Positions 3,043 to 51,056 are shown, numbered from the stretch's first letter. The stretch is 64,000 nucleotides of DNA from Takakia lepidozioides (GCA_030704615.1 CM060733.1:55056001-55120000), one strand, 5' to 3'. The notes: generated by a model from the letters alone, not told the origin. Program-made: numbers and translations.

Positions 3043-4111
3043 AGTCACGGACACAAGCCATGCAATGTATCGCTCGTCTTCATTGCTTTGACTACAACAA
3101 ACGATTCTTTACTTTCCGAAGGCCTGCACACATGCACATGGACACACAAGCTATTTGCCACACAACAAGCTCTCTTTCTCTATAGAACTTATTGAAACAA
3201 GTATAGAACACGCTATTGAGCTTTTTATGGTATACCCTCTTCTAGCCATCACATGCACTCATAGTGCTTCCTTCCATGGCCATAGTGCACCTCTTAGAGC
3301 TCCTAATCCAGCCCTGCACTTGCCACTTCCATAGACATGCTCTTCCCAAGCTTGGGATTGAAACCCCAACTCAAAGCATGCTCTACAAATACACTATTCT
3401 ACCCCAAAGAGAAATCAGATGTCTACCTCCACTCATAGCTCTCCTAAACTTGAAGTTGAAGACTCCCACAAGCTGAAACCATGCTCCACGCATGCACCGC
3501 TTGCTCCCTTAACACCCAAGCTCTTCTTGAACTCATCAAACCCTACAACACTTGCAGAACAAGAGCTTCTTCACAAGCTCTCAAACTTTCCAATGGGGCT
3601 CTCCTTGAAGACCTCCTCTTGTACATAAACCACACAAGGCTTTCTTCTTGCAAACCGTGCAATACCTTGTAACTTAAGAGTTATCTATCAAGCTCTCTTC
3701 CACACACAAGTGTTAACTATGCCAACACCTTGCACTCATAGATGTAAGCAGGTCTTCTTCTAGTGATACGGAAATGTTGAAAAGAGGAGAAACCACTCTA
3801 TCACGTTATATAAGTCAAGCCAATGGCACCTTTGCTAAATGACTCCACCATACAGACCTCACCCACTCTCCATCTCAAGTACTAGAGCTATGGCGGCGAG
3901 AGAGGCCTCGGGAGTCTCGACTAGAAGAAGACGAGCCTGCCTACGTCTCACGTGGAGATAACCTCCCCACGTCCCAAGTGAGATTCGCCACCTCACTTGG
4001 CACATGGAACCAAATGAAGTCCCAATGCCAACAAATTACAAATATAAATGTATAATGTCCTAATTAGCTAGAAATAACTATTTCTAATTAATCACAAACA
4101 AAACCATGACA
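3043..4111 (-). mobile_element. Gypsy LTR related to family B
   Basis: Starts TGTCATGGTTTT on the minus strand at 4111. 3795-4111 aligns with 11235-11555 and shares motifs with 9234-10200 in inverse orientation. Left end approximate. Confidence 0.7.
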
Positions 4112-4586: not shown

Positions 4587-5623
4587 TGTCGCGGGGCTTT
4601 TACTCACCCATCCCTTTGCTATCCGAGGCGGAAACTCCAAGATAGAAGAGTTGGAAATCTCTAAGTACTCAGCCCGCTCAGAACAATCAGTCATGACCTA
4701 CAGCTAGTGTATCATGGGGGTGTTTCATATTTGTTTTCCTTTCCGCATTCATGTTAGCTAGCTACCTTACTATTGATAATTGAGTATCAGTTTGCTCATC
4801 AATTCATCCATTCATTCCACAGCTTCACTCAGATCTCTCTACACAGTGTGATTGTATCGTATCAGTATCAGATTATGATTTATCAAGTATCAGGCCGAAG
4901 CCATTGTGTCTCTAATCTCCTCTACAATATCACTACAGCTTTGCATATAACAAGCATTTACTAATCATCTCTCCTCCTTCCCCGTGCTCTCCATGCTTGC
5001 TTTTGTTCTTGCTCTCCGCCCAATCCCCTCTCCTCCATGACCAAAAATTCTCCCCCTCGAGTCCTTCCAAGATTGATCCCCCTCGAGTGCTTCCAAGATT
5101 GATCCCCCCTTCTCCGTCCTTGCTTCTCCCTTTATCTTCCTACCCGTGGCTCTAACCGTTTTCCTCACTAACCGTCGTCCGTGAACTAACATGTTCCATT
5201 TGCAGGTGTTGTTCCCCACAGTCGTTCCCTGTCCTGCTCTCCGTTCCTTATGGTCGTGACAGCTGTGTCAAGCTGTGACTGGCTGTGACTGGCTGTGCGA
5301 CTGTGTTTGGCTGTGTCGGGCTGTGACTGGCTGTGTGGCTGTGTCGACTATGACGGGCTGTGTTGGTTGTGATGGCTGTGTCGGCTATGACGACTATGAC
5401 GGCTGTGATGGCTGTGTCGGCTGTGACGACTGTGACGGGCTGTGTTGGCTGTGTCGGCTGTGACGACTGTGACGGGCTGTGTTGGCTGTGATGGACTGTG
5501 TAACCCCCTTTTACAGTGTGCTGCTGTCACCCCTAAGGCTCCTGTTGATCTCAATCTGTGCAAAAATTAAGGGTACCCTACAGATCCCGTAAAAATGTCT
5601 AAGTCCCTGGCAGTCCTCTAACA
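4587..5623 (-). repeat. Family A 3' LTR containing a GGCTGTGAC-type minisatellite (about 5260-5500)
   Basis: tgtcgcgg...cctctaaca; homologous to 32275-33280, 34644-35675 and 43016-43998. Confidence 0.95.
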
Positions 5624-5662: not shown

Positions 5663-7191
5663 TTACTGTTTGGGATTAGCAAACCTTTGTGAGTGAGCAC
5701 CCTTCTGACGTTGAGAGTCTCGTGAAGGACTTTGTGTGCGAGCCCGAGGTCTGCCACTGGTTGACGGAGATGATTGAACACTACCTGGATATGTAAGGCC
5801 CTCTGGAGGCTGATATCGAGGTAATCTTTCAGGCATATGAGACCCCCGTCGCTTCTTTTCTTCCATCTGAATTGCATAGTCTTCTCCCATGTCAAAAGAA
5901 TCCCTCGAAGAAACAGTTGTATCAGAATCCTCATCGCCTCTCAGGTGTTTTGGTTGTCGAACTTTTGGTGGAATCCTCTGGGGCATACAATGTTGTCATA
6001 CCATGTCTGGAAGTTTATATTTAAAACTTGGTACAAACGCTGAACTGCAAAATTGGTGAAGACACTGAGCTCCTTGTCTGTCCAGGTGAGTGGGGTACCA
6101 ATGACTTGTGACTTGTTCAAGTATTTCCATGCCACATGTGCCTTAGAGAAAATATCATCAATGCCGAATTTCTGTGTTGACAAATTGTTCCAGGCTGCCT
6201 GAAACCATGAACGAATTTGAGAATCGTTTTGCATCATAACTTTTGGCTCATATAGGTACATATGAGGTGGCACTGAAGGTAAGACCCAATGATCCCCACT
6301 GGAATAACTCAGAAAGCGCGCTTGCATCTTTTGCTGCTCAATGTGATAACGTACTAGAAAACAAGCATCGTAGTATAATCCACATCCCATGACAATACTC
6401 GCTACCTCCTTGGTCTTGGTATAAATGAATCCATGTACAACTTGGAAGGCAATTAATTCCCTCAACATTGTACCTGCCTCATGTCAGTATTGTGCAAAGT
6501 GATGATCTTCAATTGGTCGATTGTTCGGAAGAACTTTAGTCCTAGTTGCAAATGGCAGCCAAATACGCATGATTTGGTAGTAATGTGCGAATGACTGCGG
6601 AGGACTAAATTCTTTCCAAGCCAAATCCAACATGATGGGAATTTGGTTGAAGGGAAGAATCATAGCCCTACTGTACTCCCTTGCAGCTGGAGTTTTAGGT
6701 GGGTTAAAAGCAGCATTGCCCCATACCTCATACTGTGGTGGCTGTGGTGTAGTTGTAGTAACAACAGGGTCAGCTATTGGCACAGTGACTTGTTGTGATG
6801 TTGGTGGCACTGGCTCTTGTACCATTGGCATCTCCTGCACCTCCTGTGAAGAAGACTGAAAAGCTAAAGTTCTCGCTTTTAAATAAGAAGCCATTAGCTG
6901 TTCATCAGGTACACAGACTCTCTTGTCGATATTTGAAGTGAGGTCCTCCACTTGAGTCTGCAGGCCGTCTATATCCTCCTGTAACTCTGCTATCCTACTA
7001 TAGACATTGTCTATAGTAGTTGTGGCAATGTTCTGCACTTGCAGCCTGAGCTCATTCATCTCGCTTTGGGTGAGCTTTCGTGGTGCTTTGCCCTCCACTG
7101 GCCCTTGTGCTAACCAGACCTGCATAAGGTGGTTATCCACCAAGTTGCTTGTGGTTCCTCTGAGAGTGTGCTCCTCTCTTTGTTTGTACAC
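5663..7191 (-). pseudogene. Family A extra 3' ORF (C-terminal part), disrupted
   Basis: Near-identical to the 525-aa ORF at 44008-45585. Split by a TGG>TGA stop at 6484 and a frameshift near 5980. Confidence 0.9.
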
Positions 7192-9233
7192 AAAGTTTTT
7201 AACTTGCCTTCATCAAACTGTTTCTTCCTCTTTATCTGAATTCTGGTCATATTATCAGCTGCATCAGCACGTACTTCTTCCACATGGTATAATTCATGTT
7301 TCCTGACCTTAATGGAATCTTGCAATTCCATTCTCTTTCCCCACTCCGTTCTCATGGTAGGTAACAGGAATTCCACTGGAAGTAAGGCTTCCATACCATA
7401 AACTAATTGGAATGGTGTATACTTAGTGGTGACTTTATATGAAGTCCTGTATGACCACAAAGCTGTCAACAGCTTTGTATCCAATCCGTTCTGTTTGCAT
7501 TGACTATCTTAGCCAAGATAGTACATAATATTTTGTTGGTAGCCTCTGCCTGTCCACTACCCTGTGGGTAATATGTTGTACTCTTCCTATGCACAATCAT
7601 GAATTCTTTAGTCAATAATTCAATGGTCTCATTAATGAAGTGACTTCCCTGATCACTGATAAATTCTAAGGGACAGCCAAATCGTGTAAGTATGTTCTCA
7701 TATAGAAACCTTGCTGTGGACTTGGCTGTGTTGTCCCTCAAAGCTTTAGCTTCCACCCATTTTGTAGTATAATCAGTGGCTGTAATTATGTACCAGTTCC
7801 GTGTATTCTTGGCTGGTGGGTTAATTGGTCCAACAAAGTCTAGTTCCCATTTCTGAAATGGTTCCGTAGGCATTGTAGGATGCAAGGCCATCCTTCCAGA
7901 TCTCTGCAAAGGTCCTAGCCTCTGACATTCATCACAACTCTGACAATACTCGTGTACATCTTTGAACAAAGTAGGCCACCAGTAACCTGCGAGTAGTAGC
8001 TTCCTACTGGTAGTCTCTTCTCCAAAATGACCTCCAGCCACTCCTTTATGAACTTCCTCCAAAACTTTATTTACTTCATGGTGGTACAAACATTGTTTTA
8101 GTACTCCATCAGGTCCTAGCTTATACATTCTGCTTCCTACCATAGTATAAGGTAAAGCTTTGATAGCGATTCTCTTCCTCTGCTCCTTACCATAACTAGG
8201 TGGGCATTGACCATGAGTAAGGTAGTATCTGATTGGCCACTGCCAATCTAACCATTCATCTGCACTTCCTTGCACCTCCATTACAAATAAACTCGCATCA
8301 GGTAACTGATCGTCCACTCCTGTGGCAGCCTCTCTTGTTGTTAGTCGTGACAAATGATCTGCCACAAGATGCAAACGGCCAGGCTTGTAAATAACTTCGA
8401 ACTCAAACTCATGCAAGATTATCAACCACCTCGCTATCCTTCCACTTATCAAAGGTTTGTTCACCAGATATATCAGAGCCTGGTGATCCACATAAAACAT
8501 AAACTTTCTTCCCAATAGATAATGCCTGAATTTCTTGACTGCATAAATCATTGCCAGTGCTTCTCTTTCAGTTGTGCTATAGTTCCTTTCAGCACTGTTC
8601 ATCAACCTGCTAGCATAGTACACAAGTGAATCTATATTTCCTGTAACATTTTGGGCTAACACCGCTCCCAACGCTTCTCCTGATGCATCGCAGTGAACGT
8701 GAAATACTACATGCCAGTGAGGGTTAATCAGCACAGGTGTAGTTGTTACTGACAGTGTAAGTTCCTCGAACGCCTGTTGACATTCAGCTGTCCAGGCAAA
8801 CACTGCATCTTTCTTCAGTAGCTTGCTCAATGGTGCTGCTATTTGTGCATACCTTTTGACAAATCTTCTGTAATAACTGGTTTGCCCAAGGAATGTACAC
8901 TTCTCTGGATTCAGGCCCAGACCTCTCATCCTGCATCTGGCCAAGCATAACTCCAATTTATGCAAGTGTTCATTCTTAGAGCTGTACACACTGAAATCAT
9001 CCAAGAACACCTGCATGAAATCATCCAGATACTCATGAAAAGATTCACTTATAACTCTCTGAAAGGTCGCTGGTGCATTACAAAGTCCAAAGGGCATGAC
9101 TTTGTATGCATAAGCACCCCAGTCTGTGATGAAAGCTGTTTTTCCTTGGTCTCCTTCTACCACTTGTACTTGATTATAACCACTGAACCCATCCATGAAT
9201 GAGTACATCTCATGGCCTGCTACAGTGTCCAAA

Positions 9234-11048
9234 CATCTTTCTCGAGTTGAGCCTCACCGCGCCTAGCTATGGCGCCGTAGTGTGGATTCCCCATGGCGTG
9301 GGGTGCACTTGGCTTGACTTGTATTTGAGTGATGAGTTTATATATGCATGAGTTATGCTTCAGCTTTGTGAGCTCGCATGAGCTTGTATTTGTATTCCTC
9401 TTCTTTATCACTCGAGAAAGATGAGCTCGTATCTGTGAGTGCCAGATATGAGTTAGTTGTAGCACTTGTGGTTTTTGCTTGAGAATGAGAGAAACCAGGT
9501 TGTTATGCAAGGAGCACCGTGGAGCTCTTGGTTGTTAGAAGCGGAGGCGATGTGGATTCGAGGTGGTAGACCTTGGCATTCGATCTTCAGCTTCAGAGAT
9601 GAAAGCACCATGCTGCAGGTAATTCCAGAGCACCTTGATGGTTTCAGATTGTGTACATGCATGAGCAAGCACGATTGGGAAGAGGACCAGTCAAGAGCAG
9701 GTTATAGTGGCTTTGGTGGCAAAGCTGAGAACTGGACTTGGGAATGCGAGCTTTCATTGTGTGAAGGATTGCAAGACCAAGCGAAAGGGCTGATTTGGCT
9801 TGGGGCAAATCAGTGCACTTTGTGGAGTATGTTGAGAGTGGGTTTCAATCTCGAGCTTCAGCATTGAGAGGGCTCTTGTCATGGCAAGAGCAGGGCTGGA
9901 ACAGGAGCTAAGAGGTGCGGCAAGGCCATGGAATGTGCACCTAGGGTTTCAGAGCTTGGAAGAAGAGCTCTTGCACCACAAGAGGAGTGTCTTGTGGCTG
10001 GAAATGTAAGCCTTAGGGTTTCAGGAGCTTGGCAAAGGTTGTGGAGTGCTTAGTCTTGTCTTAGAGAGCATCAATGAGCCAAGGAGCCAAGATAGGGGCT
10101 GATACCTCTTGTGTGAAGAGGTTGCATGCGTGGAGCATGTATTCAGCTCATTGAAGCTTCCATCTTCAAGCTTGGAGGGCAAGCAAGGGAGAGGGAAGGG
10201 GCTGGTTTCCCTGTAGAGCATGTGTGGAGCATGCTTTCAGCCTGTTGAAGGCTTGTACTTTCAGGTTTGGGAGTGCAAGAAAGGAAGGAAGGGGCTGGTT
10301 TCCCTGTAGGGCATGTGTGGAGCTGTGGCCTGTGGGGATGTGACGGGCTATGAGGGGCTGTGACAGGCTGTGTGGAGCTGTGGCCTGTGGGGCTGTGACG
10401 GGCTGTGACGGGCTGTGACACGCTGTGATGGGCTGTGAGGGGTTGTGACAGGCTGTGGCGGGCTGTGCCCTGTGCCCTGTGGGGCTGTGACGGGCTGTGA
10501 GGGGCTGTGGCCTTTGGGGCTGTGACCCCTGTGACCTGTGTAGGGCTGTGACAGGCTGTGCCATGTGGCCTGTGGGGCTGTGAGGGGCTGTGAGGGGCTG
10601 TGACAGGCTGTGGCCTTTGGGGCTGTGACCCTGTGACCTTTGTAGGGTTGTGACAGGCTGTGCCTGTGGCCTTTGGGGTTGTGATGGGCTGTGACATGTG
10701 GCCTTTGGGGCCGTGACTTGTGTAGGGATGTGACAGGCTGTGGCCTTGTGTAGGGATGTGACAGGCTGTGGCCTTGTGGGGCTGTGACGGCTGTGACCAG
10801 TGAGTTGTGTGGGCCTGTGCTGGTCTGTGGTGGCCTGTGTTGACCTGTGGACGGCCTGTGCTGACTCGTGGAGGCACAGGACTGTCTAAGGACTGGCATG
10901 TGGTCTTGAAGGCCAAATTTTGAAGCTCGTGGAGGGCGGTTTGAGGAGTATCTTCATGATATTTCCATGGTCATGCAAGTGAGGGAAGAGAGGAGAGGAA
11001 CAGTGTTGGGATGAGGGCATGTTGGGGTTAGGCATTGCTTTAGCTTCT
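9234..11048 (+). repeat. Long, truncated 5' LTR of family B with GGCTGTGA minisatellite (about 10300-10880)
   Basis: Identity to part of the 3' LTR; homology to the reverse complement of 3100-3900; low-complexity GGCTGTG repeats. Confidence 0.7.
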
Positions 11049-11555
11049 TGTCGTGCACCTAAGCATCGTGCCACAACATACATCGTTGTCCACCACACAA
11101 TCTAAGCACACAATCCTAGAAAGTTATACCACAATGGATAAGAGATGAGAAATGAGAGAAGTAGAAGACAATGAAAGCTCTCAAAGCATGAAGCAATCAC
11201 ATGAAGAACAAGCCCTAGTCCTTCCAAGTGAAATCCACTCTATCACATAAACTAAGTCAAGCCAAGGGCACCTTTGCTAAAGAAATCCACCCTACAAAGC
11301 CCTCAACACACTCCCTCTCAATACCTAGAGCTATGGAGGTGAGAGAAGCTCATGGAGGCTCAACTACAAGAAGATGAGCTCCTCAACACTCACAAGGGGA
11401 AAACCTATCTCCATGTCTCAAGTGAGGCTCGACACCTCACTTGGCATGTGAGACCAAATGAAGTCCCAACACACAAAATATAAATATAAATATCTAAAAT
11501 GTCCTAGTTAACTAGAAGTAGGTAATTCTAGATAACCATGACTAAAACCATGACA
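11049..11555 (-). mobile_element. Inverted LTR of about 507 bp from a family-B-related subfamily
   Basis: Minus strand TGTCATGG...GGTGCACGACA; its end matches the end of 18968-19472 (..GCACGACA). No TSD found. Confidence 0.8.
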
Positions 11556-12068
11556 TTATCTTCCTCGTAGTTTCCACCCTCTCATTAGGCCAAGACCTTT
11601 CCGTAGGTGGCGGCAAGAGTCAGTCCGGGTTTGGGCTGGGATGTCCTTGCAGGAGCAACACCGTGGAGTTGTTTTTGGTGTGGGGGAGTTGTCGTTCTGA
11701 TTTCTTGTGTTTGGATCCCCTCCATACCTGCATGCTTGACTGTGCCCCATGCTAGTTTTGTGTGGGCGCTTGTTTTTATAGGTGATTGGTCCGGATTTGA
11801 TCACCGGGCAGTCCTAGAGCATGCTGTCGATGGTGAGGCTGGAGTGATGACCAGCCAGACCATCATTGTTTCTCCTGTGGTGAGGTTGGAGGTGATGACC
11901 AGCCAACCATAGGAGTGCTTGCGGTGGATGCAGGTACAGGTGTAGGCTATGTTAGGAACCTAGTATTCCAAACCATAAGCCGCAACAGGTTCTCTACCCG
12001 GTTACCTTGTAGAGAGGGGGTTAGGGACATGTTCATGACCGGTTGAATGACAATTTGTCAAAACGGAG

Positions 12069-13500
12069 GTGCCACTAGTTGCTGGGGACAGTGCCGGTTC
12101 GAGCACTAGCGATACTAGTGGGTACACGAGACGAGGTGTGCGGCTTAGGCCACCTTCACCTCCTGTGTCTTCTACGGAAGGTTCTGATTCGGAATGTGAA
12201 TTAGGAGGACTCATACCGGCGGTGCAAGTTGTTTCCTTGCCATTGTTGTGGGACACAATGGAGGAGATGTATGGAGCTACCAAGGGGCCACGAAGGTACT
12301 CTGGGGCGGTGGGCACCATCGAGTTGGATGATTTTATCCAAGAGTTTGATAGTTGGTGTGATTTGCAGAAAATGCGCAATCCACAACTATTTACACCTTT
12401 CATGGCATGAAAGGGGCTGTTTCAGCACCTTGAGGGGCCGCCTATGGATGATTACCATGAGTTCAGGCGGGGGCATGAGGTTGAGATCGAGGAGTGGAGG
12501 ATGTATTGGTCACCCGACTATGTCTCCATCACTAGGGGCACTAGAGCCACGAGGGCAGTGGCTACACCTGCCGCTGCACCGGCAGCTTCAGCAAGCAGCA
12601 GTGGGACCAGTAGGACTGGTGGTACAGTAGCTACGACGTCCACCCAAACCACTACCGCACCAGCACTAGTACCCGTGCCTGCCTTCAACCCTGTTGTGGA
12701 GTTCTTCGAAGAGTTGAGAAGAAACTACCAAGGGGTGAGGACAGAGAAGTTGCAGAGCTTGCAAGAGTTCCAACGGAAGCCGACCGAGAGCTTGAGGGAG
12801 GCTTTCACTCACATGAGGCGCTTGATAAATGTAACCCAAGGGGTTACGGAAGCTCAGGCAGTCCAATTCTGGTATGGGATATTGGACAAGGAGCTGAAAA
12901 GAAGGGTGCGGGATGCAACTCTCCTACAAGCGGCCCAACCCACCTTAGCAAATGTGTTTTTGCTGGCAGAGCGGATAGAGCTCAACATGGTGGAGGAACG
13001 AGTGGTCATGGTGGGATTTGCTAAGGAGACACCACGGGGTAGTGGTGCTCCTAGCCAACCACTACCTCAACGTGCTCAAGGCAACAAGGGGGCTCAGGTG
13101 AAACTCAGGGAAGGGCAGAGATGACCTCAGATGCAGGTGTCTCTCCCTTCATTTGCTGGCTAACAACGGGCGGATGTGGTGTGCTGGACATGTGGAGGAC
13201 CCCATGTCAAGAAGGATTGCCCAGAGGGAGGCAAAGGGCCGGCACATGCACAGCCTGCATACTTGCAGTGTGGGCATTGTGGCAAGCACGGGCATGGAGA
13301 GGCCCTGTGTTATGGTTTGCATCCTGAGTTCCGCCCAGGCCAGTTCCAAGGGAACAATGGTGGCCGGGGGCGAGGTGGAGCAGCCCAGATAAAACGAGGT
13401 GGCCAGGCACGAGGTGCAGGCCAAGGGCAAGCTCAACATGGCCAAGGACGCGGAGGTCAGGGTGTTGACCAAGGCATGGCCAACCGGCTTCAGCAGCTAG
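12069..13500 (+). pseudogene. Family B Gag with two zinc knuckles
   Basis: YSG..ELDDFIQEFDSW; FQRKPTESLREAF; CWTCGGPHVKKDC and CGHCGKHGHGEALC. TGA at 12408 and a frameshift near 13100. Confidence 0.85.
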
Positions 13501-14199
13501 AGCATAGGCTCGCTACTATGGCTACAACTCAGGTGGTACCGGCTCCAAGGCCAGATGGTCCACCTCCTGCTCTTGAGGGAGGAGATATGGGAGGCATGGA
13601 ATTCATGTGCGGAGCAGCACTACCACTAGTGCAGGTGGAGTCTGCTGCAGCCGTGACTCGAGGAGCAGCACAAGTTCCTGAGCCACGAGGTGCAGAGGTG
13701 GAGTTGGATCCACAGCGTGGGGAGGCAAGCCGTCAGGCTAGGCTTCCTCAGTCATTCACATTGGCGGAGACAGTGTCGACGCCATCCATGGCACCTAGTT
13801 TTTGCCCGACTGTTACCGAGGCGGAGGTTACTATGCCATTGGGGAGAGCTACACGGGTAGCACCACTACCTAGGGTTGCCAAGGCTACGGCAGCTAGTGT
13901 GCTGCTAGGAGCGGCCACATCTGTGTGCCAGGCTCCATTGTTCTCGGGTACCATGATTGCGATGCCGGGGGTAAGACCAGCTGAGGTGTTCAGGCTGGCA
14001 GCTACACTTTGTGAGAGTGGGGAGGTTACTTCATCTTCTGCGGAGATAATGGGAGGTGTAGTGCCGGAGGGATCCTCGGATTTGAGGGTCAAGACTGCCA
14101 CGGTGGCGCCATGGCAAGCTGCAGCTGCCAGGTTGATGGAGCTGCCAGCTAGGCCAGCCATTGAGCGCGCCATGGTTACACCTAGAGTTGTCATGATAG

Positions 14200-14482
14200 A
14201 CAACCAGGATGGCATTTTCTGTTTGAGTGGACCGGCAGGCAAGACGTACCAGCCACTGCGGATCTTGTTGGACTCGGGAGCTCAGCCATTGATACTGGGC
14301 AAAGCTGCTATTACAGGCTTGGGCATCACGGAGGCGGATATGGAGCCTTGTCATTTCCAGATACAGACGTCTCTGGGAGGATCGAAGCAAGCTCGGGGCA
14401 TGACACGGCGTGAGTTGGCTATCAGACTACGGCCGGATCACTCTACAGATGGCTCAGTGATGCGAGCCAAGGCCATTGTGAG
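14200..14482 (+). pseudogene. Aspartic protease of family B (C-terminally truncated)
   Basis: ILLDSGAQPLILG, with DSG at 14271. Confidence 0.85.
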
Positions 14483-15130
14483 AGGTCGGGTCTGTTTTGG
14501 GAGATGGTGCGGGTTTTGCGCCACTTGCAGCTTCATCAAGCTGTATCTCCAGCATACATCTTGGAAAATGTGCCACTGATGAGCGATTCTCGGGCCAGGG
14601 TGATGGCCAGTGTGCATGAAGTCCGGTCGTGGCTTGGGTCAGCAGTGTTGCTAGATGCAGCTACAGTGGGGTCACGGGCTCATCGTCCACGGCTATGGTG
14701 GACTAACTTGATGCCACCCGCACTGCTCAAGCGTGCATTTGATGGGGTGCAGCAGCCAACACATCTCACAGTGGGTAGCATTCTGGACACAGGGAGGCAG
14801 TCTCAATGTGTGAGACACGATGACCATTCGCCTTTGGCAGTGGTCAACAAGGTGGGTCAACCACGAGCAGCATTACCTACACTGCTCAGCTTCCTAGGAT
14901 CGCATGCTTTTCGGGATAGTGGACCTGGCCTCCTGTGGGATGCTCAGTTGCAGCAGTTAGTGGAGCCTAATGCTGACGAGCGTGAGCGGGCAATGGGTTT
15001 TACCACTGGTACCACGGCGGTGTCGTCTCTTTCTGAGGCATCATGTCGTCAGGTGTTGGGGCAAGCAATGGATCTCAATTGCTTGACCTGGATTATCAGC
15101 TTGGCTATGGCTGAGCAACGCAGAGTGCAG
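14483..15130 (+). pseudogene. DNMT3-like C5 cytosine methyltransferase domain, motifs V-X (motifs I-IV absent)
   Basis: RSGLFWEMVRVL (V), YILENV (VI, 14564), DAATVGSRAHRPRLWWTNL (VII-VIII), ERERAMGF..GTT (IX), RQVLGQAMD (X). Order and wording parallel DNMT3 (FENV, AHRARYFWGNL, ERVFGF, RLLGRSW). Confidence 0.88.
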
Positions 15131-15519
15131 AGTACACTTCCCTCGATGGTCTCTCTGCCTACCGAGACGGTACAGGTAGTGAGTGGGGGCGAGCATGTGA
15201 GGACCACGGGGTGTAGGCATCCATGGCACACGTGGGAGGTGCTCGAGGTTCAGAGGGAGTTGGCAACCAAGGTGGCGGTGATAGATGAGGTTGGGGATTT
15301 TTCTCGGGTGGAGGGAGTCCTTGAGGATGAGATGATGGGGCAGGATGAGGCCTTGTCACTGACTGAGCAGGTAGGGAGTACTGCTCAAGAGGTTGCAACA
15401 TAGCAACCACTAGACGCGTCCTCTACCTCTAAGCCCACTGGACTTAAGGTTGCAGTTACGGAGGACAATTGGGAGCCTGACATTGGACCCATTGTCACCG
15501 GAGGAGAGAGACAACGTAT

Positions 15520-18300
15520 ACGGCGGTTCCTGAGGGCTTACAGGAACTGCTTTGCCTTCAGTTTGAAGGACTTGGGAGCACTGAAGGGTCAAGAGATCCG
15601 TATTGAGTTGGCCACTGACACGCCAATCTTTCGGAGACCCTATAGATACAGTGACATGGAGAGGTCTTTGATTCAGATGAGAACTCAAGATCTCTGGGAG
15701 GCAGGTTTGGTGGAGCTCTCTGGTGGAGAGTATGCTTCAGCCACAGTGATGCCAGCCAAGAAGGATGTCTATGGCAATTGGACGGAGAGACGTATGTGCG
15801 GTGATTACCGGCCTATAAATCGTCAGACCAAGTCCGATAAGTATGCCATGCCAACACCAGAGGAGATCTTTGATGCCATCGGGCATGCTAAGGTCTTTAG
15901 CACTTTGGATTTACGATCCGGATATCACCAGTTGCCAATCAAGGAGGCGGACAAGCAGAAGACGGCATTCTGGGGGATCAATGAGCACGGCAAGGATTGC
16001 CTATATCAGTGGCGGTTCTTACCATTTGGGCTTAAGAATGCTCCTGCAGAGTTTCAGAGAGTCATGGATAGGATTCTAGCAGGGGTGGACTTTGCTCGGT
16101 GCTACATAGATGACATCATCATCTTTAGTGTTACGGTGGAGGAGCATGAGAGACACCTTCAGGTGGTATTGGAGCACTTGAGAGCGCACGGATTGAAGTT
16201 GCATCCGGGGAAGTGCAAGTTTTTCCACAATCAGATTGAGTATCTGGGTCACATGATATATCCTGGAGGATTGGGGGTACAGCAGACTAAGGTAAATTCC
16301 ACGCCCCACCGATGTGAGCCGAGTTTGAGCTTTCATGGGGTTGGCAAACTATTATAGACGGTTTGTCAAGGGATTTAGTGCCACTGCAAAGGCTCTAACC
16401 AAGCTGACCAAGGTAGACCAGGAGTGGTAGTGGGAAGATGAGCAGGAACGAGCTTTTCAAGAGCTCAAGTCGAGGTTGACCTCGGTGCCTATCCTGAGAC
16501 AACCTATCAGGGGGTGTCCCTTTCAGCTGCATACGGATTGGAGCATGCTGGGGCTTGGAGCGGTGCTCACACAGGTGGATGATGAGGGAAGAGAGTTCGT
16601 AGTGGCTTATGCTAGCCGCTCTAATTACAGCTCATATGAGGGAGAGTGCTTAGCTGCAGTGTGGGCCATGGCACACTTCAGGTGCTATCTATACGGCAAT
16701 CTTTTCACCCTTGTCATGGATCACCAGCCACTCAAGTGGTTGATGGAGTCAGACAAGCTTACGGGGAAGCTTACGGGGAAGCTTGCACGGTGGGCACTCA
16801 TACTCCAGGAGTATGACTTTCAGGTTGTGCATCGACCGGGTTTGGTCAATCGGGATGCGGATGGATTGAGTCGCAATCCATGCACGAGCCAGCAGGATGA
16901 CACTGGAGCTCGGTGGCATGGTGAGACGGACGAGGAGATGGTGTCGGGATGGCACGCATCTGCATTTTTGTGTATCTTGGCATCGGGAGGTCAGGTTGGA
17001 CCTACAACAAGGATGACTGTAGACGGAGTGTCTGAGGACCCTAAGGCTAGTGTTGAGCCAGGTGGTGCCAGAGATATACATGAGGATTCGGCTGTGTTGG
17101 ACTACTTCCGCACGGGAGACACGGCAGCCACTGCGACTGCCAGGGAGAGGGATTGGATCCTGCAACGAGCCAAGAGGTTCAAGTGGGAGGGGATACACCT
17201 ACTTCGAGTGTGGGAGGATGGTCGGGTGAGGATTGTGCCTCACCCCACACAGCGTGCATGGTTAGTGCGGCATGCCCATGAGGAGTTGGGGCATTTTGGA
17301 ATGCGACGCACTCACAGTTTACTGCAGGGGCAGTATTGGTGGCGTGGTATGCATACAGAGGTGCAACAGTTTGTGGCTAGGTGCATGGTGTGTGACAGGG
17401 TGCGTGCTTCATTCAACGCCCCTACACCACAGTTGCATCCTTTACCAATCATGGGATTGGGCTACAGGTGGAGTCTTGACTTTGCAAGACCGTTGCCACT
17501 GACTATGCACCACCACAGATACGTGTTGGTGATGGTGGAGCACTTCTCCAAGTGGATTGAGTTGGTTCCATTGCCTGACAAGGCTAGTGAGGGGGTTGAG
17601 TATGCATTCTTGGATCGTGTGCTTAGCCGAATTGGTGCTCCAGCTGAGGTACTCACGGACCAAGGGAGATAGTTCTTGGGGGAGTTTCAGGCTTTGTGTG
17701 ATAAAGCCTTGATAGACCACCGCACCACTTCTCGGGATCATCCTGAGGCCGATGGCTTGATAGAGAGAGAGTTGTTCAGACGGTGAAGAGGGGTTTGTGC
17801 AAGTATGGCTTGCAGAAGGGACACCTAGGAGATTGGGATCTTCAGGTTCCTTGGTTAGCCATGGGCTACAGGTTCAGCAAACAAGCATCACTTGCCTCCT
17901 TCTCACCATATTTCCTTCTCTTTGGCCGAGAGCCGGATTTGCTTGCAGCCATTCTTAGGGACACTGCTCAAGTCCTTAACCTTGACGATCCGGACGTGTG
18001 GGTACATGCATGTGATCAGCGTGCAGAGTTGTTCAAGAAAGTCATGCCCATGGCTTTTGAGAACTTTGCCATTGCACAACACTGTGATACGTTGTATGCC
18101 ACTATACGTGGTGGAGGATATCGTCATGGGGTTCGGAGGTTTAGCCCTGGTGACTATGTTTATTTGCAGTAGACTGCTCCTATGACTCTGGATGTTACTG
18201 CAGGGCGTGTTATTCTGAGGGTTCAAGAGGTGTTGCCCTCAGGGGTCCTGATCTTGGAGGGTCAGGACGGCATGACTTGGAAGGACCATGTGCGTAATTG
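15520..18300 (+). pseudogene. Family B RT, RNase H and integrase
   Basis: LDLRSGYHQ, PFGLKNAP, YIDDII; HTDWSMLGLGAVL, DADGLSR; HEELGHFG..CMVC, SLDF, LTDQG. Several stops and frameshifts. Confidence 0.95.
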
Positions 18301-18373
18301 TGCACCATGTCACCTTCCCAATGTCGATGGCAGAGTTGACCCAAACTTGGCAGTGGTACCTGCAGGTTTGAGG

Positions 18374-18517
18374 TGCATGCTCTGTGGGTTTGCCAAAGGG
18401 GCAGCCACCATGCTGGTGTGTAATCGATGCTCAAGGGGTTGGCATATGGGATGCTTGACACCACCTCTTGAGAAGGTTCCTGATGGAGATTGGTTGTGTC
18501 CACACTGCTTGGGATAG
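18374..18517 (+). CDS. PHD finger (C4HC3) at the integrase C-terminus
   Basis: CMLC..MLVCNRCSRGWHMGCLTPPLEKVPDGDWLCPHC has all 8 zinc ligands and the conserved Trp. Confidence 0.93.
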   Translation, partial: CMLCGFAKGAATMLVCNRCSRGWHMGCLTPPLEKVPDGDWLCPHCLG

Positions 18518-18777
18518 TGGCAGTGGACATGACTGGAGGCAGCTAACAAGACATGGGAGGCCAAGCTCATAGGAGTCAATACATGAGATCCCAAGCTCAA
18601 GTTCACAGGTTGCAAGATGGCGACTAACGATGGGGCAACTCTTGCACCCGGCCTCTTGATCTATAAAGTTTGAGTGTAGTAGGGATAGTGGTGGAGGACT
18701 TAGTGAGGCTATGGTCACTATCACATCTTGTGGCTACCTGGACTTAGAGGGACCTAAGCACCAGCTAGGGGGGCGAT

Positions 18778-19472
18778 TGTGTGGACTAGTGACTGCCATA
18801 GTGGGCAGCATAGTGGCAGCCTAGTGACTGACTAGTTGTAGCCTAGTGGTTGGACTAGTGGTTGGACTAGTGGTGGACTAGTGATATACTAGTGTGTGGC
18901 GTGCACATGTGTTGTGTGGTTTTGGACAGCGATGTAGTTGTGTAGCGATATGTATGCGCACGACAGCTGTCAAGTTATTTTACCACTAGTGTGAAATTAA
19001 CTAGGAAATAGCTAGCTTTTACATATTGACATTCGGGATTGGCCCAAGTGTCAATCCAGGGGTCAAGGCAGATTTAGGCCCTGGAGTGGTTATCTTCACG
19101 GCAAGCGCGGGAGGCTCATCTTTCTCGAGTTGAGCCTCACCGCGCCTAGCTATGGCGCCGTAGTGTGGATTCCCCATGGCGTGGGGTGCACTTGGCTTGA
19201 CTTGTATTTGAGTGATGAGTTTATATATGCATGAGCTATGCTTAAGCTTTGTGAGCTCGCATGAGCTTGTGCTTGTATTCCTCTTCTTTATCCATTGTGT
19301 GGACTAGTAACTGCCATAGTGGGCAGTATAGTGACAGCCTAGTGACTGACTAGTTGTAGCCTAATGGTTGGACTAGCGGCTGGACTAGTGCTATACTAGT
19401 GTGTGGCGTGCACATGTGTTGTGTGGTTTTGGACAGCGATGTAGTTGTGTAGCGATATGTATACGCACGACA
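18778..19472 (+). repeat. Tandem 3' LTRs of family B (deleted copy 18778-18965; longer copy 18968-19472)
   Basis: 18778-18965 duplicates 19296-19472; both end GCACGACA. Confidence 0.85.
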
Positions 19473-24143: not shown

Positions 24144-27100
24144 ATGGCTTCCTCTGAAGCGGAGTTCTTCTCTGACGACAAACCAGTGCCGTTCTCCAAG
24201 GAAACCCTTGACAATGGATTCACAATTGTTCTGGAACATGTCTTGGCTACCCGGTTTGAGCTTCAGAATGGCTCCATCTTCTTGGAAAAAGAGGTGTACG
24301 ATTTGGAAGGGAAGTTGTTGAAATACTCTTTCCAAAACCGTGATGAGACGGCTCATGTCAGCTAGTGGAGAGTATGTTCTGGTCGATACAGAGTACTTGG
24401 AGAGCCTCGGCAAAAGTCCCTTGGATCATATGTGACGCCCCGGACTGCAGCTTCAGTCGTTGAAGACAAGAGAGAACAGTTTGCAATGGACACCTTAGGT
24501 GTGATAATTTGAATTGCAGACACTTTCTTTAGTCTGGGGTTCATAATCAAAGCGAGTGGGAGGGTCTGGCGGAAAATCCATTTAAGCTTGGGACTGCCCC
24601 TCCACCGGCAAACACTTTCGTTTGCAAATTCTGCAAACTTGTGCCATCCTGCCTAGCGCTGTGCGGAGCAAGAATATACTATGTTGTCCACCGTTTGAAA
24701 ACAATGACAAGAGCTTGTGTGCATTTCGGTTTCCATAACCATCCTGTCTCGAAGGGGGATTACAGGGAGAGTGTTGAGACAATATCGAGGTTGATTAAAC
24801 AGGAGTACGAGAGAAACCCATCCGCAACAACATCTGCAATTGCTCTTGGCGCAAGCAAGTCCTTCTTGGAAAGACATATTTTGAGTGAAGGGGATTCTGT
24901 GGGGACTAAACTTGACGGTGCAGCATTGGACCTTGTCATGGATCATTTCTCCACTTTGAGTTCACCTAACATTCGGCATCAGATCAATGCATTGAGAATG
25001 GGCTCTGGGATCAGAGGCTACATAGACAACAATTTGGAATTGAAACGACTGAGCAAGTACGACTACATCCAGGACAATGTTTTCCCAGGTCAAGGTGCCA
25101 TATTCAAAGTATTTCTTTTCAAAATGTCGACTGTTGGGGAGGGCAGTGGGGTTAGCCTCGTGAAGCGAATGCAGAAGACTGGGGACTTGCAGAATTATTT
25201 TCTTATGTTTGATCATGTGAAACGAGTGAAAGATTGGACGACAATGGCTTGTTATGTCTACGATCCAGTGTACCAACGAGTTATGACAATTGCAGTTTGT
25301 GTCATGCAATCCGAGGATATGGAATCCCAGAAGCTCATGTGGAATTCCCTGATACGTGTTATGGGCTGCCATGGGTTGCCATCTCCAAATTTCGCATCAT
25401 GGCGGATAGTGCTCAGGCGAATTTCAATGTTGTTCGAATTGTCTTCGGATGGGGCGACCCAAAAGTGCCAATCCCGGGAAGAGAGCGTACATGTCTATTC
25501 CATTGGAACAATCTCTGGAGAAACATACAAAGTCGGACATCAAACCAGAGATGCAGACTCAGGTGGTAAATTGTGCAAATAGCACAAAGATGCTAGAACA
25601 ATGAAGGAGGCGGATACTTTGTTCCACACAATTCGTTCCTGGTGGTTCTCTTCTGGAGCTACATCGCTTGAGAGTATGAGAGCATTGGAAGATTGGCTGG
25701 CGTTTTGGCACTTCCGGTACAGACAGTGAGGAGCAGCCATGACAATGGTGCGAGGCTTCTATTTCTTGCTTTATTCATACATTTACTTTCCATATTTTTG
25801 ACTCCTTGCTTTCTTTATGTTGTTCCCTGTGCATTGTTCTAAAGTGTGGTTCTTCACTTTGCAGAACATGTCCATTGAGGAAATGGCGGACATGCCATCT
25901 TGCAATTTGGCAGAGACTGTGCACAACACATGGTTGCAACAGTCTGGGAAACAAGGTCGGGATTTGTATGTGGCAACAACAGATGATTTGATACGTGCCT
26001 TGCAACAACAAACCCGATACCGTGATTTCTTGCGAGGTGGGGTTGGTGGCAAGGGTCCAGACAAATTGGAGGTGATGTTGCGTTTTGCAAACAGATATGG
26101 GGATCCAAGCAAGATAGCACGGGCGGTGAGCATGTATGCCCAGGGAACGCCACTTGTTTCTAGAGGTCCACATCTTGAAGGGGACGAGAGATTCGGCTCG
26201 TGTAAGAGGAAATTGAACACTCCACCTGGTTCGGATTCCGATTCGCACAGGGCAGACCGTGATAACTTCTCGAAGCCTCGTGTTCCCCTGCATGACAGAT
26301 CCATGTCCGGAACCTCCATTATGGAGGAACCTCCAACACGACGGCAGGCTCCAGCATCAAACAGTGCCACTGACATGGTGCAGGAGAGAAACAACCCCCT
26401 TGATGTACTTGAGTCCGCATGCCCCGACCACGTTTGGCACAAAGAACGCACAAGTGCAAGGTCTCGTGTGAAATGTACAGCGATCAGGGCAACTAATTTC
26501 AAGAAGTGCACTTCATCTATATCCAGAGGTGGTGCCCGGACTCCTGCTCCGACTTTCACGGGTTTGATGCGTCCATACGGTCAACCAGAAGCCAAGAACC
26601 ACAAGTTCAGGTTCTGCGCAGATGATTGTGGTAGATGTGTGCATGGAATTGTGCGTCCTTCCGTGGTGATGAAGCCAGCTCCTCCAACCGTTTGGCCCGT
26701 CAAGGTGGGAACACATCTCATAAGTCAGGAGATTGCAATTAATGCTGGAGGAGGCAGACTTTTCCCTTGCGAGACAACCCCAACTGCATGCATGTGCTAC
26801 ATGAGGTACATTGATCACTTCGACATCTGCTGTTCATGACAGGGCCTACGACATCATGGTTTCCAATTTCCCCAATTGCACATGTCCTAATTTTGTGAAT
26901 ATGCTATCAACCGGAGGCGACAACCACCCAGTTCTGGTTCTGCAGGCACGACATTATGACTTGCGTGTATGGAAAGCCCAAGTACGGCATACAAACAATG
27001 CCAGAGGCTCCCCCGGTGTGGCCGGTGGAACCAGGCTGCGATCTGAGTCAGGTTGAGGATGGTGCAGCGCACTGACGTCCCCAGACAACCATTTCCGCTT

Positions 27101-27559
27101 CCACAGCCTCCACCACCGACCCCTGTGAGAGCAAGAACAATGGGACACGACAGCTCTAAGCATCCTACACACCGTTGGGGGAAACCGAAGAGGCGGCGAC
27201 CTCCCTCAAAAGTGAACGAGACAAGGATGGGGAATGCACTTCGGATGAACTGTACAATCCAGAGCTCGACAGAAGTGCCCCCACCAGGATTCAGGCGTGT
27301 GTATCAGATGGCCACGGCGGGCTCAGCTGTTCGCAATGAGGTGTACACCATCACCATTTCAGAATTACCCACCTGCAATTGCACCGACTTCCAGATCATG
27401 GCGAACAAGGGGGCATCATACTGCCCTTGCAAGCATTTGTACTACGTGTACCTAAAGAGACTCCGTTGTAATTCCACAACTCATCACTTCATACATGCAC
27501 CAGGGTTGAGCCCCCAGGAGGTTCACACTCTTCTGAATATGGATCCAGGGGACCAGTGA
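24144..27559 (+). mobile_element. Mutator-like (MULE) transposase pseudogene copy 1: GCM-like Zn domain, DDE core, SWIM finger
   Basis: CKFCK..C..C..GFHNHP; MFDHVKR..MADSAQ..CLFHW..NLAETVH; C-terminal CNCTDF..CPCKHLYY. GT-AG intron 25748-25864; frameshifts. Confidence 0.8.
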
Positions 27560-27976: not shown

Positions 27977-30032
27977 TGTAAAGTACTGCAGACTGTATAG
28001 GTGCAGACTCCATTAGTTCAATCGCGGCAAAAGGACCGGCTATAGCATCCGGTCCACCCAGCCACCCGTGCTACAAATCAGCTTTTACGCGCATCCAGAT
28101 CTGCTCCAGGCGCCTGTACGCCATCATCCCTTCTCCAACCATCTTGCCATCTCCACGCACACATCATTAAATCCCTAGTCCTGGATCTCTTCATGCACGC
28201 GAGACTGCTCCATTTTACCTGCAACTGTCAGTTCGGCGATATTCTAGCAGTCTCTTGTTATTCCAAACTGGTTGACAGGTCGATCTTCGTTCCTAGCACC
28301 TAACAAATTCCCCCTCCCAAAGACAGGTCATTGTCCTCAATGACAGAAAATGAGGGGTAACTCAATGTCAATTCATTTTCCTCCTCCCAAGTAGCTTCTG
28401 TCTCTGGGTAATGCAACCACTTAATCAAATGTTCTTTCCAAGAACGGTTGCGTAGTGATGGGTCTGACATATACCTCCGGAGAAGGCTGACATGGAAAGT
28501 TTTATGGATCTTCCATGTTGGAGGTAGATCCAACTCATAGGCCACTGTGCCATGGCGTTCCAGGATTTTAAACGGGCCACAAAACCTTGGTGACAACTTA
28601 TAGCACTTGCCCAGTGTTAGATTGCTTCTTTTAGGTGTAACTTTCAAAAACACCATATCACCAATGGCAAATTCACGAAAAGTCTTGTGTTTATCAGCAA
28701 AGAACTTGGTCCGTTCTTGTGCAGCCTACATACTACGCTTCACCAGATCTAGGACAGAGTGGATCTCTTTGATTCTGTCATTCACACTCTGCACATTTGA
28801 TGGTGGCGTAATAAGCGAAGCAGGAGCCAAGCAATCTCGTCCATATAAAGCTTCAAATGGGCTCATGCCAATGGCACTATGGAAATGCTTGTTATAAGCA
28901 AATTCCACCATATACAGATATTGTTCCCAAGAGGACTGTCTTTCACCAACGTACATCCTCAACATATCTTCTATTGTACGGTTGGTCCTTTCTGTTTGAG
29001 CATCTGTTTCTGGATGAAAGGCCGTACTCAGTTTCACCTTGGTTCCCAATTTCTTGAACAAGTCAATCCAAAAATGACTTATAAACTTTGAGTCCCTGTC
29101 ACAAATAATCTCCCGAGGCAGACCATGGATCCTGAATATCTCTTTCATGTACAAGGATGCAACATTAGATGCCGTAGCACTCATCCTTGTAGGTATCAAG
29201 TGGGTTATCTTAGACAGCCTATCTACAACCACCATGATACTGTCATGGCCATTTCTGGTCCTGGGCAATGCCACAATGAAATCCATGCTAATGGATTCCC
29301 AATTCCATCCGGGAACAGATAAAGGTTGTAATAATCCAAGAGGTCTGACTCTCTCTGACTTCAAAACCTGACATGGGAAACATTATTTGCACATACTCTT
29401 TAATTTCTCTCTTCATACCTGGCCAAAAATAGTGCTTCTGTATTGACCAATAGGTTCTCTGAAAGCCCGGGTGTCCAGAGATTGGAATATTGTGACTGTC
29501 ATGAATAATCCGCAATCTCAAGTCTGGAATCAGGGGAACACACAGCCGACCATCATAAAATAACACCCCATCTCTCAAGAGGTATGGCCGGTACTTCTCT
29601 TTCTCAATAGAAGTTCTTTGGTCACGAGACAAACTCTTGAATGGCTCTTTGAAGAATTCATCGACCTCATACTGACCTTTAATGTCTTGAATTATAGTGC
29701 TACTGACGCATGAGACTACATTAGCTTGTAATGGTCTCATAGAAAGTGCATCAGCAATCACATTCTAGCATCCGGTCCACCCAGCCACCACGCCGTGCTA
29801 CAAATCAGCTTTTACGCGCATCCAGATCTGCTCCAGGCGCCTGTACGCCATCATCCCTTCTCCAACCATCTTGCCATCTCCACGCACACATCATTAAATC
29901 CCTAGTCCTGGAACTCTTCATACACGCGAGCTTGCTCCATTTTACCTACAACTGTCAGTTCGGCAATATTCTAGCAGTCTCTTGTTATTCCAAACTGGTT
30001 GACAGGTCGATCTTCGTTCCTGGCACCTAACA
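27977..30032 (-). mobile_element. Chromovirus-type Gypsy, deleted (integrase plus chromodomain between two LTR remnants)
   Basis: Direct repeats 28043-28305 and 29766-30032 start TGTTAGGTGC on the minus strand. PPT GGGAGGGGGAA. WESISMDF, KLSPRFCGPF, HLIKWLHYPETEATWE. Left end approximate. Confidence 0.9.
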
Positions 30033-35200: not shown

Positions 35201-35675
35201 ACAGCCCGTCACAACGTACATAGGGAACGATTATCATTGGCAGGAAACGACTGTGTGGGAACGACATCTACAGAGGGAACGTACTTATTATTGGGTGACA
35301 GTTAGTTAGTTAGGTGGTTAGAATGACTGTGCCGAGCTTTGACTGGCTGTGTAAAGCTGTGTCGGGCTGTGTCGTGCTGTGTCGGCTGTGACTGGTTGTG
35401 CGAAGCTGTGTCGGGTTGTGATAGACTGTGACTAACTGTGATAGGCTGCGATTGGCTGTGACAGACTGTGTAAGGCTGTGTCGGGCTGTGTAAGACTGTG
35501 TATGGCTGTGACTAACTGTGCAACCTTGTGTACCACCCCCTAAGCCTGTGTTGGTCTAAGTCTACCATCGTAAATCTACGCAAAAATTAAGGATACCCCC
35601 CAGAACCCGTAAAATTGTCTAAGTGTACCCCACAGAACCCGTAGCACTGTCTAAGTCCCAGACAGCCCTCTTACA
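32275..35675 (-). mobile_element. Complete non-autonomous family-A LTR element (two LTRs, PBS, PPT, 5-bp TSD)
   Basis: LTRs 32275-33280 and 34644-35675. TSD GCTGC at 32270-74 and 35676-80. PBS TGGCGACCATACTGGGGAA (34641-34623). PPT near 33285-33298. The 1.36-kb interior holds the element's 5' internal part plus the extra-ORF end. Confidence 0.95.
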
Positions 35676-50556: not shown

Positions 50557-51056
50557 NNNNNNNNNNNNNNNNNNNNNNNNNNNNNNNNNNNNNNNNNNNN
50601 NNNNNNNNNNNNNNNNNNNNNNNNNNNNNNNNNNNNNNNNNNNNNNNNNNNNNNNNNNNNNNNNNNNNNNNNNNNNNNNNNNNNNNNNNNNNNNNNNNNN
50701 NNNNNNNNNNNNNNNNNNNNNNNNNNNNNNNNNNNNNNNNNNNNNNNNNNNNNNNNNNNNNNNNNNNNNNNNNNNNNNNNNNNNNNNNNNNNNNNNNNNN
50801 NNNNNNNNNNNNNNNNNNNNNNNNNNNNNNNNNNNNNNNNNNNNNNNNNNNNNNNNNNNNNNNNNNNNNNNNNNNNNNNNNNNNNNNNNNNNNNNNNNNN
50901 NNNNNNNNNNNNNNNNNNNNNNNNNNNNNNNNNNNNNNNNNNNNNNNNNNNNNNNNNNNNNNNNNNNNNNNNNNNNNNNNNNNNNNNNNNNNNNNNNNNN
51001 NNNNNNNNNNNNNNNNNNNNNNNNNNNNNNNNNNNNNNNNNNNNNNNNNNNNNNNN
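50557..51056. other. Assembly gap (500 N)
   Basis: Run of exactly 500 N. Confidence 1.

Follow-up and report, generated by a model that had tools for sequence, protein, structure and literature searches.

The closest described relative of the element reported here is KnitGypsy-Dnmt3 of the alga Klebsormidium nitens, which the available text of its report presents as a Gypsy body with DIRS-like repeats (de Mendoza et al. 2018, PMC5890265). Here we describe a decayed Ty3/Gypsy element of the KnitGypsy-Dnmt3 kind at positions 9234-19472 of a 64,000-nucleotide stretch of Takakia lepidozioides DNA (GCA_030704615.1 CM060733.1:55056001-55120000; the whole stretch is called the window below). Its domains follow one another from 5' to 3' as gag, protease, a DNMT3-like methyltransferase, reverse transcriptase (RT), RNase H, integrase and a PHD finger. 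The explanation that we consider fairly probable as a whole is a dead copy whose methyltransferase belonged to the Gag level, whose Pol products were likely made by readthrough of a stop codon, and whose kind likely integrates from an end-joined circle of complementary DNA (cDNA). It builds on the observed domain order, stop, repeats, TG...CA ends, 4-bp duplications and positions of the primer site and purine tract.

With KnitGypsy-Dnmt3, as set out in the available text of PMC5890265, the present family shares the Gypsy domains, a Dnmt3-like domain in the polyprotein, the DIRS-like repeat layout and purifying selection. According to the accessible part of the review file, however, Dnmt3 lies in the open reading frame (ORF) of the RT there, whereas here it lies in the Gag frame before a conserved stop; that element is algal, while ours is carried by land plants and has a PHD finger. 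Neither PHD nor Marchantia occurs in the text and supplements of PMC5890265 as available, and we found in them no account of termini, target duplications, priming sites or the integration route. SymbioDIRS-Dnmt3 and other DIRS-order elements with split direct repeats likewise combine A-coding-B-A-B repeats with a Dnmt3 in Pol (PMC5890265, available text), but they use a tyrosine recombinase in place of the DDE integrase, TG...CA ends and 4-bp duplications seen here. EpiLTRs of Cymbomonas and Euglena are also long terminal repeat (LTR) elements joining a DNMT to a chromatin reader; their enzyme, however, is DNMT4-related and accompanied by DAM and a chromodomain, and the authors, in the accessible part of the preprint, set them apart from streptophyte Gypsy-DNMT3 (bioRxiv 10.64898/2026.05.21.726589). 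Chromoviruses of the Tf1/Sushi group and Tcn1 share self-priming in place of a tRNA primer and a histone reader after the integrase (PMC6317226, PMC4600332, in part), and Tj1 has a stop between gag and pol; in contrast to our element, the Tf1/Sushi group and Tcn1 have a chromodomain rather than a PHD finger, ordinary LTRs and no methyltransferase. In their accessible parts, Sarre et al. 2025 and the 2026 preprint mention streptophyte retrotransposon DNMT3 by citation, and their trees may include bryophyte copies; PHD fingers are known in other transposons and transposon fusions (PMC8557442, bioRxiv 2021.11.30.470311, available text). The accessible literature, including PMC11982613, PMC6453930 and PMC10952607, held no account of the land-plant family, the stop or the junction described below, most subscription papers and Repbase lying outside the search. 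What is new here, as none of it was found in print, is the presence in land plants, the PHD finger, the conserved stop and the mechanism, Gypsy-Dnmt3 itself being already known.

By its proteins the element is Gypsy, and its ends are non-canonical. Protease, RT, RNase H and integrase stand in the Ty3/Gypsy order with a DDE integrase, and the best solved match of the RT is that of Ty3 (E 8e-38), followed by caulimovirus (6e-28) and retroviruses (1e-11). The gag-protease part is 48% identical to residues 1-708 of Marchantia P0004 (PF03732 E 0.002, PF13650 E 0.1; protease motif LLDSG near 14265), and the integrase is 76% and 65% identical to that of the intact P0115. Further comparisons draw on 75 loci from an alignment search of metagenome contigs, most of them from one Sphagnum-type family; several represent one insertion that was assembled two times over, so that the counts overstate independence, which tells against the reading built on them. 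Among these loci, TG...CA termini and perfect 4-bp target duplications, in keeping with the 4-6 bp of Ty3/Gypsy elements, occur at 6/6 distinct full-length insertions, whereas the two identical terminal LTRs of that group are lacking: the repeats are split and permuted as A...B-A-B. A Dnmt3-related, unrearranged methyltransferase in a Gypsy polyprotein and DIRS-like A-coding-B-A-B repeats are traits of the KnitGypsy-Dnmt3 kind, and both are present. The DIRS order (PAT/Ngaro) does not fit, as the window and its relatives have an rve integrase and the domain searches of them returned no recombinase family; nor do chromoviruses, since a PHD finger and not a chromodomain follows the integrase. 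Troyka was ruled out by its CG...CG termini, 3-bp duplication and animal hosts (PMC12440569), against TG...CA and 4 bp here. For Selgy and Phygy, the REXdb paper mentions neither PHD nor methyltransferase.

A sequence-only reading, made earlier without database searches, had placed a Gypsy element at 12069..18517; the element is real, but its true span is the wider one given above. That reading also called the copy dead, which seven premature stops and three frameshifts, together with a deletion of ~840 bp, bear out. What it had recognized as methyltransferase motifs between protease and RT, in the pol orientation, lie where it put them: LFWEM (motif V region) from about 14492, ENV at 14564-14572, HRPR at 14681-14692, and EPNADERERAMGF and GQAMDLN before 15130. 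Against PF00145 the remnant gives a weak match (E 0.074, 12.9 bits, under the cut-off of 22), because the deletion removed motifs I-IV; relatives with the whole domain pass. Profile and fold comparison both agree with the DNMT3-like assignment first made from the motifs. Among solved structures, the top match of a 17-sequence profile is DNMT3A (E 4e-22); DNMT3C and DNMT3B come next, followed by DRM (1e-8) and bacterial enzymes (6e-6). DNMT3A is also the best match of the predicted fold, although this model is of modest quality (mean pLDDT 56), which counts against leaning on it. On these two rankings the domain is DNMT3-like.

The remnant is 69-73% identical to the best proteins of Marchantia polymorpha and Calypogeia fissa, and comparison with relatives defines what was lost. 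P0004 aligns through residues 1-708 and 987-1243 with nothing between, so that the window is short of ~280 residues, a stretch that begins at the protease end and reaches just past motif IV; protease and motif V lie 254 nt apart here, whereas the spacing is 1054-1110 nt in 32 of the 37 loci measured. On either side of 14481/14482, sister contigs (sets X1, X4 and X5) depart from the sequence of the window, which implies many sister copies without this deletion. In intact relatives motifs I-X stand in unrearranged order with the catalytic PC, ENV and RxR-type residues kept, and six Marchantia ORF1 proteins of 1248-1281 aa have FGG, GWPCQG and ENV intact. Between families, pN of the methyltransferase is 0.18-0.41 with pS 0.61-0.86 (near saturation), and pN of the RT is 0.13-0.22. 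We give practically no weight to the idea that an ordinary Gypsy element once captured a piece of host DNMT3 or had one inserted into it, or to an assembly artefact. The window remnant, taken alone, falls under the Pfam cut-off and begins at a frameshift, as such an origin would have it; yet the same position and order recur across dozens of loci and the named bryophyte genomes, sister contigs continue on both sides of the deletion, and at E<=1e-30 the profile finds 540 clusters. Sister copies keep the segment, making it a fixed part of the family.

The lineage is present in land plants, as had been supposed from the window, a claim that rests on the named genomes of Marchantia, Calypogeia and Sphagnum: relatives in all three carry the methyltransferase domain, whole in Marchantia and Calypogeia. 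Searching with the remnant yielded 69 proteins of greater length. Marchantia polymorpha and Calypogeia fissa, on multi-megabase contigs, supplied the top matches, and Sphagnum gene models ranked lower; one locus, L002, includes a segment that matches a Sphagnum fallax protein without a difference. Among the loci with room for them, methyltransferase motifs I-IV occur in 59/63 (one search pattern was motif IV itself, favouring this count), the RT in 48/52, and integrase and PHD finger in 20/21; all six domains stand together in 12 loci. Intact ORF2 proteins (RT-RNase H-integrase-PHD) of about 1030-1100 aa are common. The family looks very abundant in its host. Contig depths added together do not amount to a count of copies. 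A first metagenome scan with a single protein and a scan of viral contigs gave no relatives, and a search of the Atlas added only a small Streptophyta DNA-methylase cluster, with phage methylase clusters at equal score.

In a quick RT tree, the window groups with Calypogeia, Marchantia and Sphagnum-type elements in a clade of 16 rows (SH-aLRT 96), outside which lie, successively, Coleochaete (RT 67% identical) and two related Klebsormidium RTs (43-46% identical), the latter not matched to the published elements; this nested order fits vertical descent. Methyltransferase and RT distances are correlated (Mantel r 0.64, 0/999 permutations, 71 rows), and in both midpoint-rooted FastTree trees 17/18 elements sharing the window's domain order fall into a single clade. 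A second architecture, with the methyltransferase between RNase H and integrase, was found in 21/24 long relatives scanned. A larger sister group, with P0058, P0239, P0246, P0248 and others, has this order and keeps the PHD finger, with additional Tudor-like (P0241) and G-patch (P0286) domains in some members. The same placement appears in 53 of the 67 proteins that hold both domains, and in a gene model of the chlorophyte Monoraphidium. P0116, from a Coleochaete scutata transcriptome, is a complete RT-RNase H-integrase-PHD frame (RT 67% identical) and hints at an expressed copy in a charophyte.

The stop at 15401-15403 is a conserved feature rather than damage. In 51 copies the end of the methyltransferase and the beginning of the RT are both present; 40 of them are in frame with the window counted, and 39 of these 40 have a stop at the same position (TAG in 31, TAA in 8), each followed by CAAC, and L043 has two stops there. 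It is common to three families despite linkers of 396, 441 and 459 nt, the ORF1 proteins of Marchantia and of the Calypogeia cluster terminate at it, and no Met follows closely in the window or L010. The window context, CAA CCA, fits the UAG-CAR-YYA readthrough consensus. These features suggest that RT, RNase H, integrase and PHD finger are likely made by readthrough, and, because the stop separates ORF1 from ORF2, that the methyltransferase is likely made at the Gag level, apart from a Pol-level PHD finger. Two observations speak against readthrough: the Sphagnum-type context is CAA CCC, which is not the full CAR-YYA and has a Met three codons past the stop, and the relatives P0113 and P0109 are without any stop.

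An enzyme of the Gag level may be packaged and methylate the new cDNA, a proposal whose chances we see as evenly balanced. For such an enzyme, acting on the cDNA would be the least complicated role. Its domain sits in the Gag frame, suiting action inside the particle, the catalytic motifs are kept in intact copies, and DIRS-borne Dnmt3 domains, in particular that of SymbioDIRS, methylate CG in yeast according to the available text of PMC5890265. The same text reports that the KnitGypsy-Dnmt3 domain showed no activity in yeast, a point against cDNA methylation, and so is the CpG observed/expected ratio (o/e) of the element, which at 0.48 is not below those of three other LTR elements in the window (0.25, 0.37 and 0.44). 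The proposal of self-methylation, made before from the motifs, thus found no direct support. These two results and the second architecture, which places the domain beside the integration machinery, would suit a methyltransferase kept for something other than element cDNA, whether acting on the target site or host chromatin, acting on RNA, or binding nucleic acid without catalysis; we regard such a role as somewhat doubtful, given the kept catalytic residues, the Gag frame and the activity of the DIRS-borne domains. Separately, CpG is depleted and CHG is not in window 12258-18517 and L010 (o/e 0.2-0.5 and about 1-1.3), while CHG is depleted too in the Sphagnum-type loci L004 and L054 (0.4-0.9), a weak hint that the hosts may differ in methylation type.

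The PHD finger at the end of the last frame is intact, as first noted from its C4HC3 pattern, and its nearest solved relatives are the fingers of CHD4, KDM5B/5A PHD1, ATXR5 and PHF21A, which are known as readers of the unmodified H3 tail. PHD fingers that read H3K4me3 are known for an aromatic-cage Trp two residues before the zinc His; this Trp is lacking here, the position being Gly in the window and nearly all loci, and ING, BPTF and TAF3 are not among the 60 best solved matches shown. The earlier suggestion of an H3-tail reader is in line with this resemblance. We predict a module targeting chromatin unmethylated at H3K4, and slightly favour the view that it would tether the integrase to such H3 tails. 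That the finger instead directs the methyltransferase, as ADD does in DNMT3, had been put forward in the sequence-only reading as a mobile reader-plus-writer, and we find this improbable. The kinship of the finger and the missing Trp would agree with it, as would the second architecture, in which both domains share one frame. In the window, however, the methyltransferase ends ORF1 and the PHD finger ends ORF2 ~3.3 kb further on, past the conserved stop, with RT, RNase H and integrase between. Being in different ORFs they would be separate mature proteins, any joint product would be cut by the protease, and contact between them would be limited to the integration complex, in trans.

What is most unusual about the element, its split repeats and its priming signals, had been overlooked. 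Self-comparison equates 9234-9409 with 19117-19292 and 18776-18965 with 19294-19472, which gives the layout A1-internal-B1-A2-B2; the full layout is seen in L048, L049/L050 and L054. Termini in the loci are TG...CA, except in L048, which starts with TA; the window 3' end is CA, past which contig depth drops (beyond 19475, from 7e5 to 3e3 in X1 and from 1161 to 0.04 in X5), and the 5' end is lost, leaving its own target duplication unreadable. The six insertions with duplications comprise three of the A-internal-B-A-B and three of the A-internal-B form. At the B1|A2 junction a 2-nt spacer separates CA from TG in 10/10 loci and the window, GC in 6/11 and TA in two decayed copies, while the A2|B2 joint is flush in 8/9 loci, carries a 19-nt insert in L048 and has one extra base in the window. 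No TGG-type tRNA primer site follows A1. In 4/12 loci the primer site is 13-15/15 complementary to a site in A that lies ~28 nt after a TATAAA, though the sequences of the two families differ; in the other 8/12 the match is no better than shuffles, which weakens the case for self-priming.

Very probably, the RNA would start inside A1 and its own 5' end would prime reverse transcription, as in Tf1 and Tj1 (PMC4600332, accessible part). With comparable probability, plus-strand priming before B would yield a cDNA of the form BA-internal-BA, the product of standard LTR reverse transcription from a primer site after A and a purine tract before B; the true LTR would then be B+A, with the CA-NN-TG site internal. 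We think it rather probable that the cDNA ends are next joined, creating the A2|B2 joint, and that the integrase cuts the left B|A junction, producing A-internal-B-A-B. There are precedents in the available texts: the integrase of foamy virus cleaves both strands of the palindromic LTR-LTR junction behind CA (PMC1180852), and HIV-1 2-LTR circles can be linearised and feed integration (PMC4372172). The retroviral circles thus share a DDE integrase cutting a palindromic CA...TG junction on both strands, but there, in the parts of PMC1180852 and PMC4372172 available, the junction stems from end joining and is a side route, whereas here it is encoded inside the element as a would-be regular attachment site.

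The circle has points against it. Being symmetric, it contains the B|A junction twice in identical form, and a cut at the other one would result in A-B-A-internal-B; among the 16 loci whose 5' end is visible (13 distinct insertions) this mirror form occurs in none, an unexplained asymmetry. Circle, RNA and proteins are all predicted from DNA. A template-jump route, in which A-internal-B-A-B is regenerated during reverse transcription and linear DNA integrates with no ligated circle, either because B is copied a second time, onto the right end, by RT or because B2 is already part of the RNA, accounts for the missing mirror product in 0/13 distinct 5' ends and on that ground stays a live rival, and the mostly flush A2|B2 joints agree with it. 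We nevertheless hold it to be unlikely, as the joint is exactly what the ends of BA-internal-BA would give, with no remnant of primer site or purine tract, and as L048 with its insert and the window with its additional base bear what look like end-joining scars. The end-joined circle can be taken further, and tentatively: it would be the regular integration substrate, opened at the encoded internal junction; DNMT3 packed at the Gag level would let the DNA arrive methylated, methylation perhaps marking which junction is cut; and the PHD finger would steer it to H3K4-unmethylated chromatin, all in an old green-lineage Gypsy branch. This extended version we consider doubtful.

Copies with a single A and a single B also occur (L017, L060 and L074; also L019, L025 and L033/L035), and perfect 4-bp duplications flank the three of which both ends can be seen. 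Without a 3' copy of A they should not replicate; they would be dead-end by-products or B1-B2 recombinants. In L003:5864-5976 and L009:5874-5986 a B repeat is reversed and upstream of gag, and in L007:1677-2014 an A repeat has no primer site after it; these copies are possibly rearranged or nested.

Table 1. Coordinates of the element and its parts in the window.
Feature	Position	Strand	Remarks
Repeat A1, last 176 bp only	9234..9409	+	97.7% identical to 19117-19292; first ~149 bp lost where a neighbouring Gypsy fragment abuts
Primer-binding-site position, likely self-priming	9410..9426	+	pairs at 17/17 bases with 19114-19130 in A2; 500 shuffles reached at most 13
Long 5' region	9427..12257	+	tandem array with ~10-bp units at about 10300-10830; from 12051 a short upstream frame; contig depth of same order as coding part
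Nested solo LTR of another family, foreign to the element	11049..11555	.	TG...CA, imperfect 4-bp duplication; part matches 3790-4111
gag and aspartic protease	12258..14481	+	two zinc-knuckle-like motifs; three premature stops; protease end lost
Deletion junction	14481..14482	+	~840 bp gone (protease end, linker, motifs I-IV), with frameshift
C-terminal half of DNMT3-like C5 cytosine methyltransferase	14483..15130	+	motifs V, VI, VIII, IX, X
In-frame TAG then CAA CCA, ORF1 end, likely readthrough site	15401..15409	+	stop and CAAC in 39/40 in-frame copies
Reverse transcriptase and RNase H	15404..16880	+	PF00078 E 1e-33, PF17917; frameshift near 16300, two premature stops
Integrase (HHCC zinc domain, DDE core, C-terminal part)	17240..18172	+	PF17921, PF00665; frameshift near 17765, two premature stops
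C4HC3 PHD finger ending ORF2	18374..18517	+	PF00628 E 2e-10 (match 18374-18511)
Polypurine-tract-like run	18766..18775	+	directly before B1; same run before B1 in loci
Repeat B1, ending ...GACA	18776..18965	+	against B2: 8 mismatches in 179 aligned bases, one 11-bp indel
B|A junction inside the element, palindrome GACA-GC-TGTC, likely attachment site of the integrase	18962..18971	+	sister contigs: mixed flanks behind 18965, before 18968
Repeat A2, 325 bp, starting TGTC	18968..19292	+	self-comparison and locus comparison
Repeat B2 and element 3' end ...GACA	19294..19472	+	one extra base at A2|B2 joint

Within the long 5' region, sister contigs connect 11046-11048 directly to 11559-11571, so that the nested LTR is absent there; an inserted element of 9410-11555 was considered and rejected, since the contig joints limit the insertion to 11049-11555. 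Tandem arrays rich in GCTGTGAC lie at 5254-5531, 10300-10830, 32951-33261, 35304-35624, 43621-43901 and 48219-48500, that is, in the element's 5' region and in other repeats of the window. Another Gypsy family is represented on the minus strand by two related copies, 44011-50555 and 5944-9233, whose frames of 545, 305 and 620 aa after the integrase had no confident Pfam match. Related frames at 24533-27559 (+) and 63064-63789 (-) lack Pfam matches, and one of them has a SWIM-like CxC...CxH motif; they are probably a DNA transposon. A chromovirus integrase fragment with SH3 and chromodomain lies at 28303-29764 (-). The window also holds a DUF688-type gene at 51140-52088 (-; E 1e-10), of a family that is presumably plant-specific, with relatives 29-47% identical; it is cut by a 500-N assembly gap at 50555-51054.

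The purpose of retrotransposon cytosine methyltransferases has been open since 2018, the Gypsy type being known from one alga, in which the assay failed. The Marchantia relatives, multi-copy ORFs with intact catalytic motifs annotated as hypothetical proteins, make the question testable with existing genetics and methylome data. Elements of this kind are likely to be missed or misannotated by LTR-finding pipelines because they have no paired terminal LTRs, and their domains may contribute to bryophyte methylomes and inflate counts of DNMT3 genes. Their anatomy would imply that a DDE integrase works on an attachment site inside the element; for retroviruses such a route is considered marginal.

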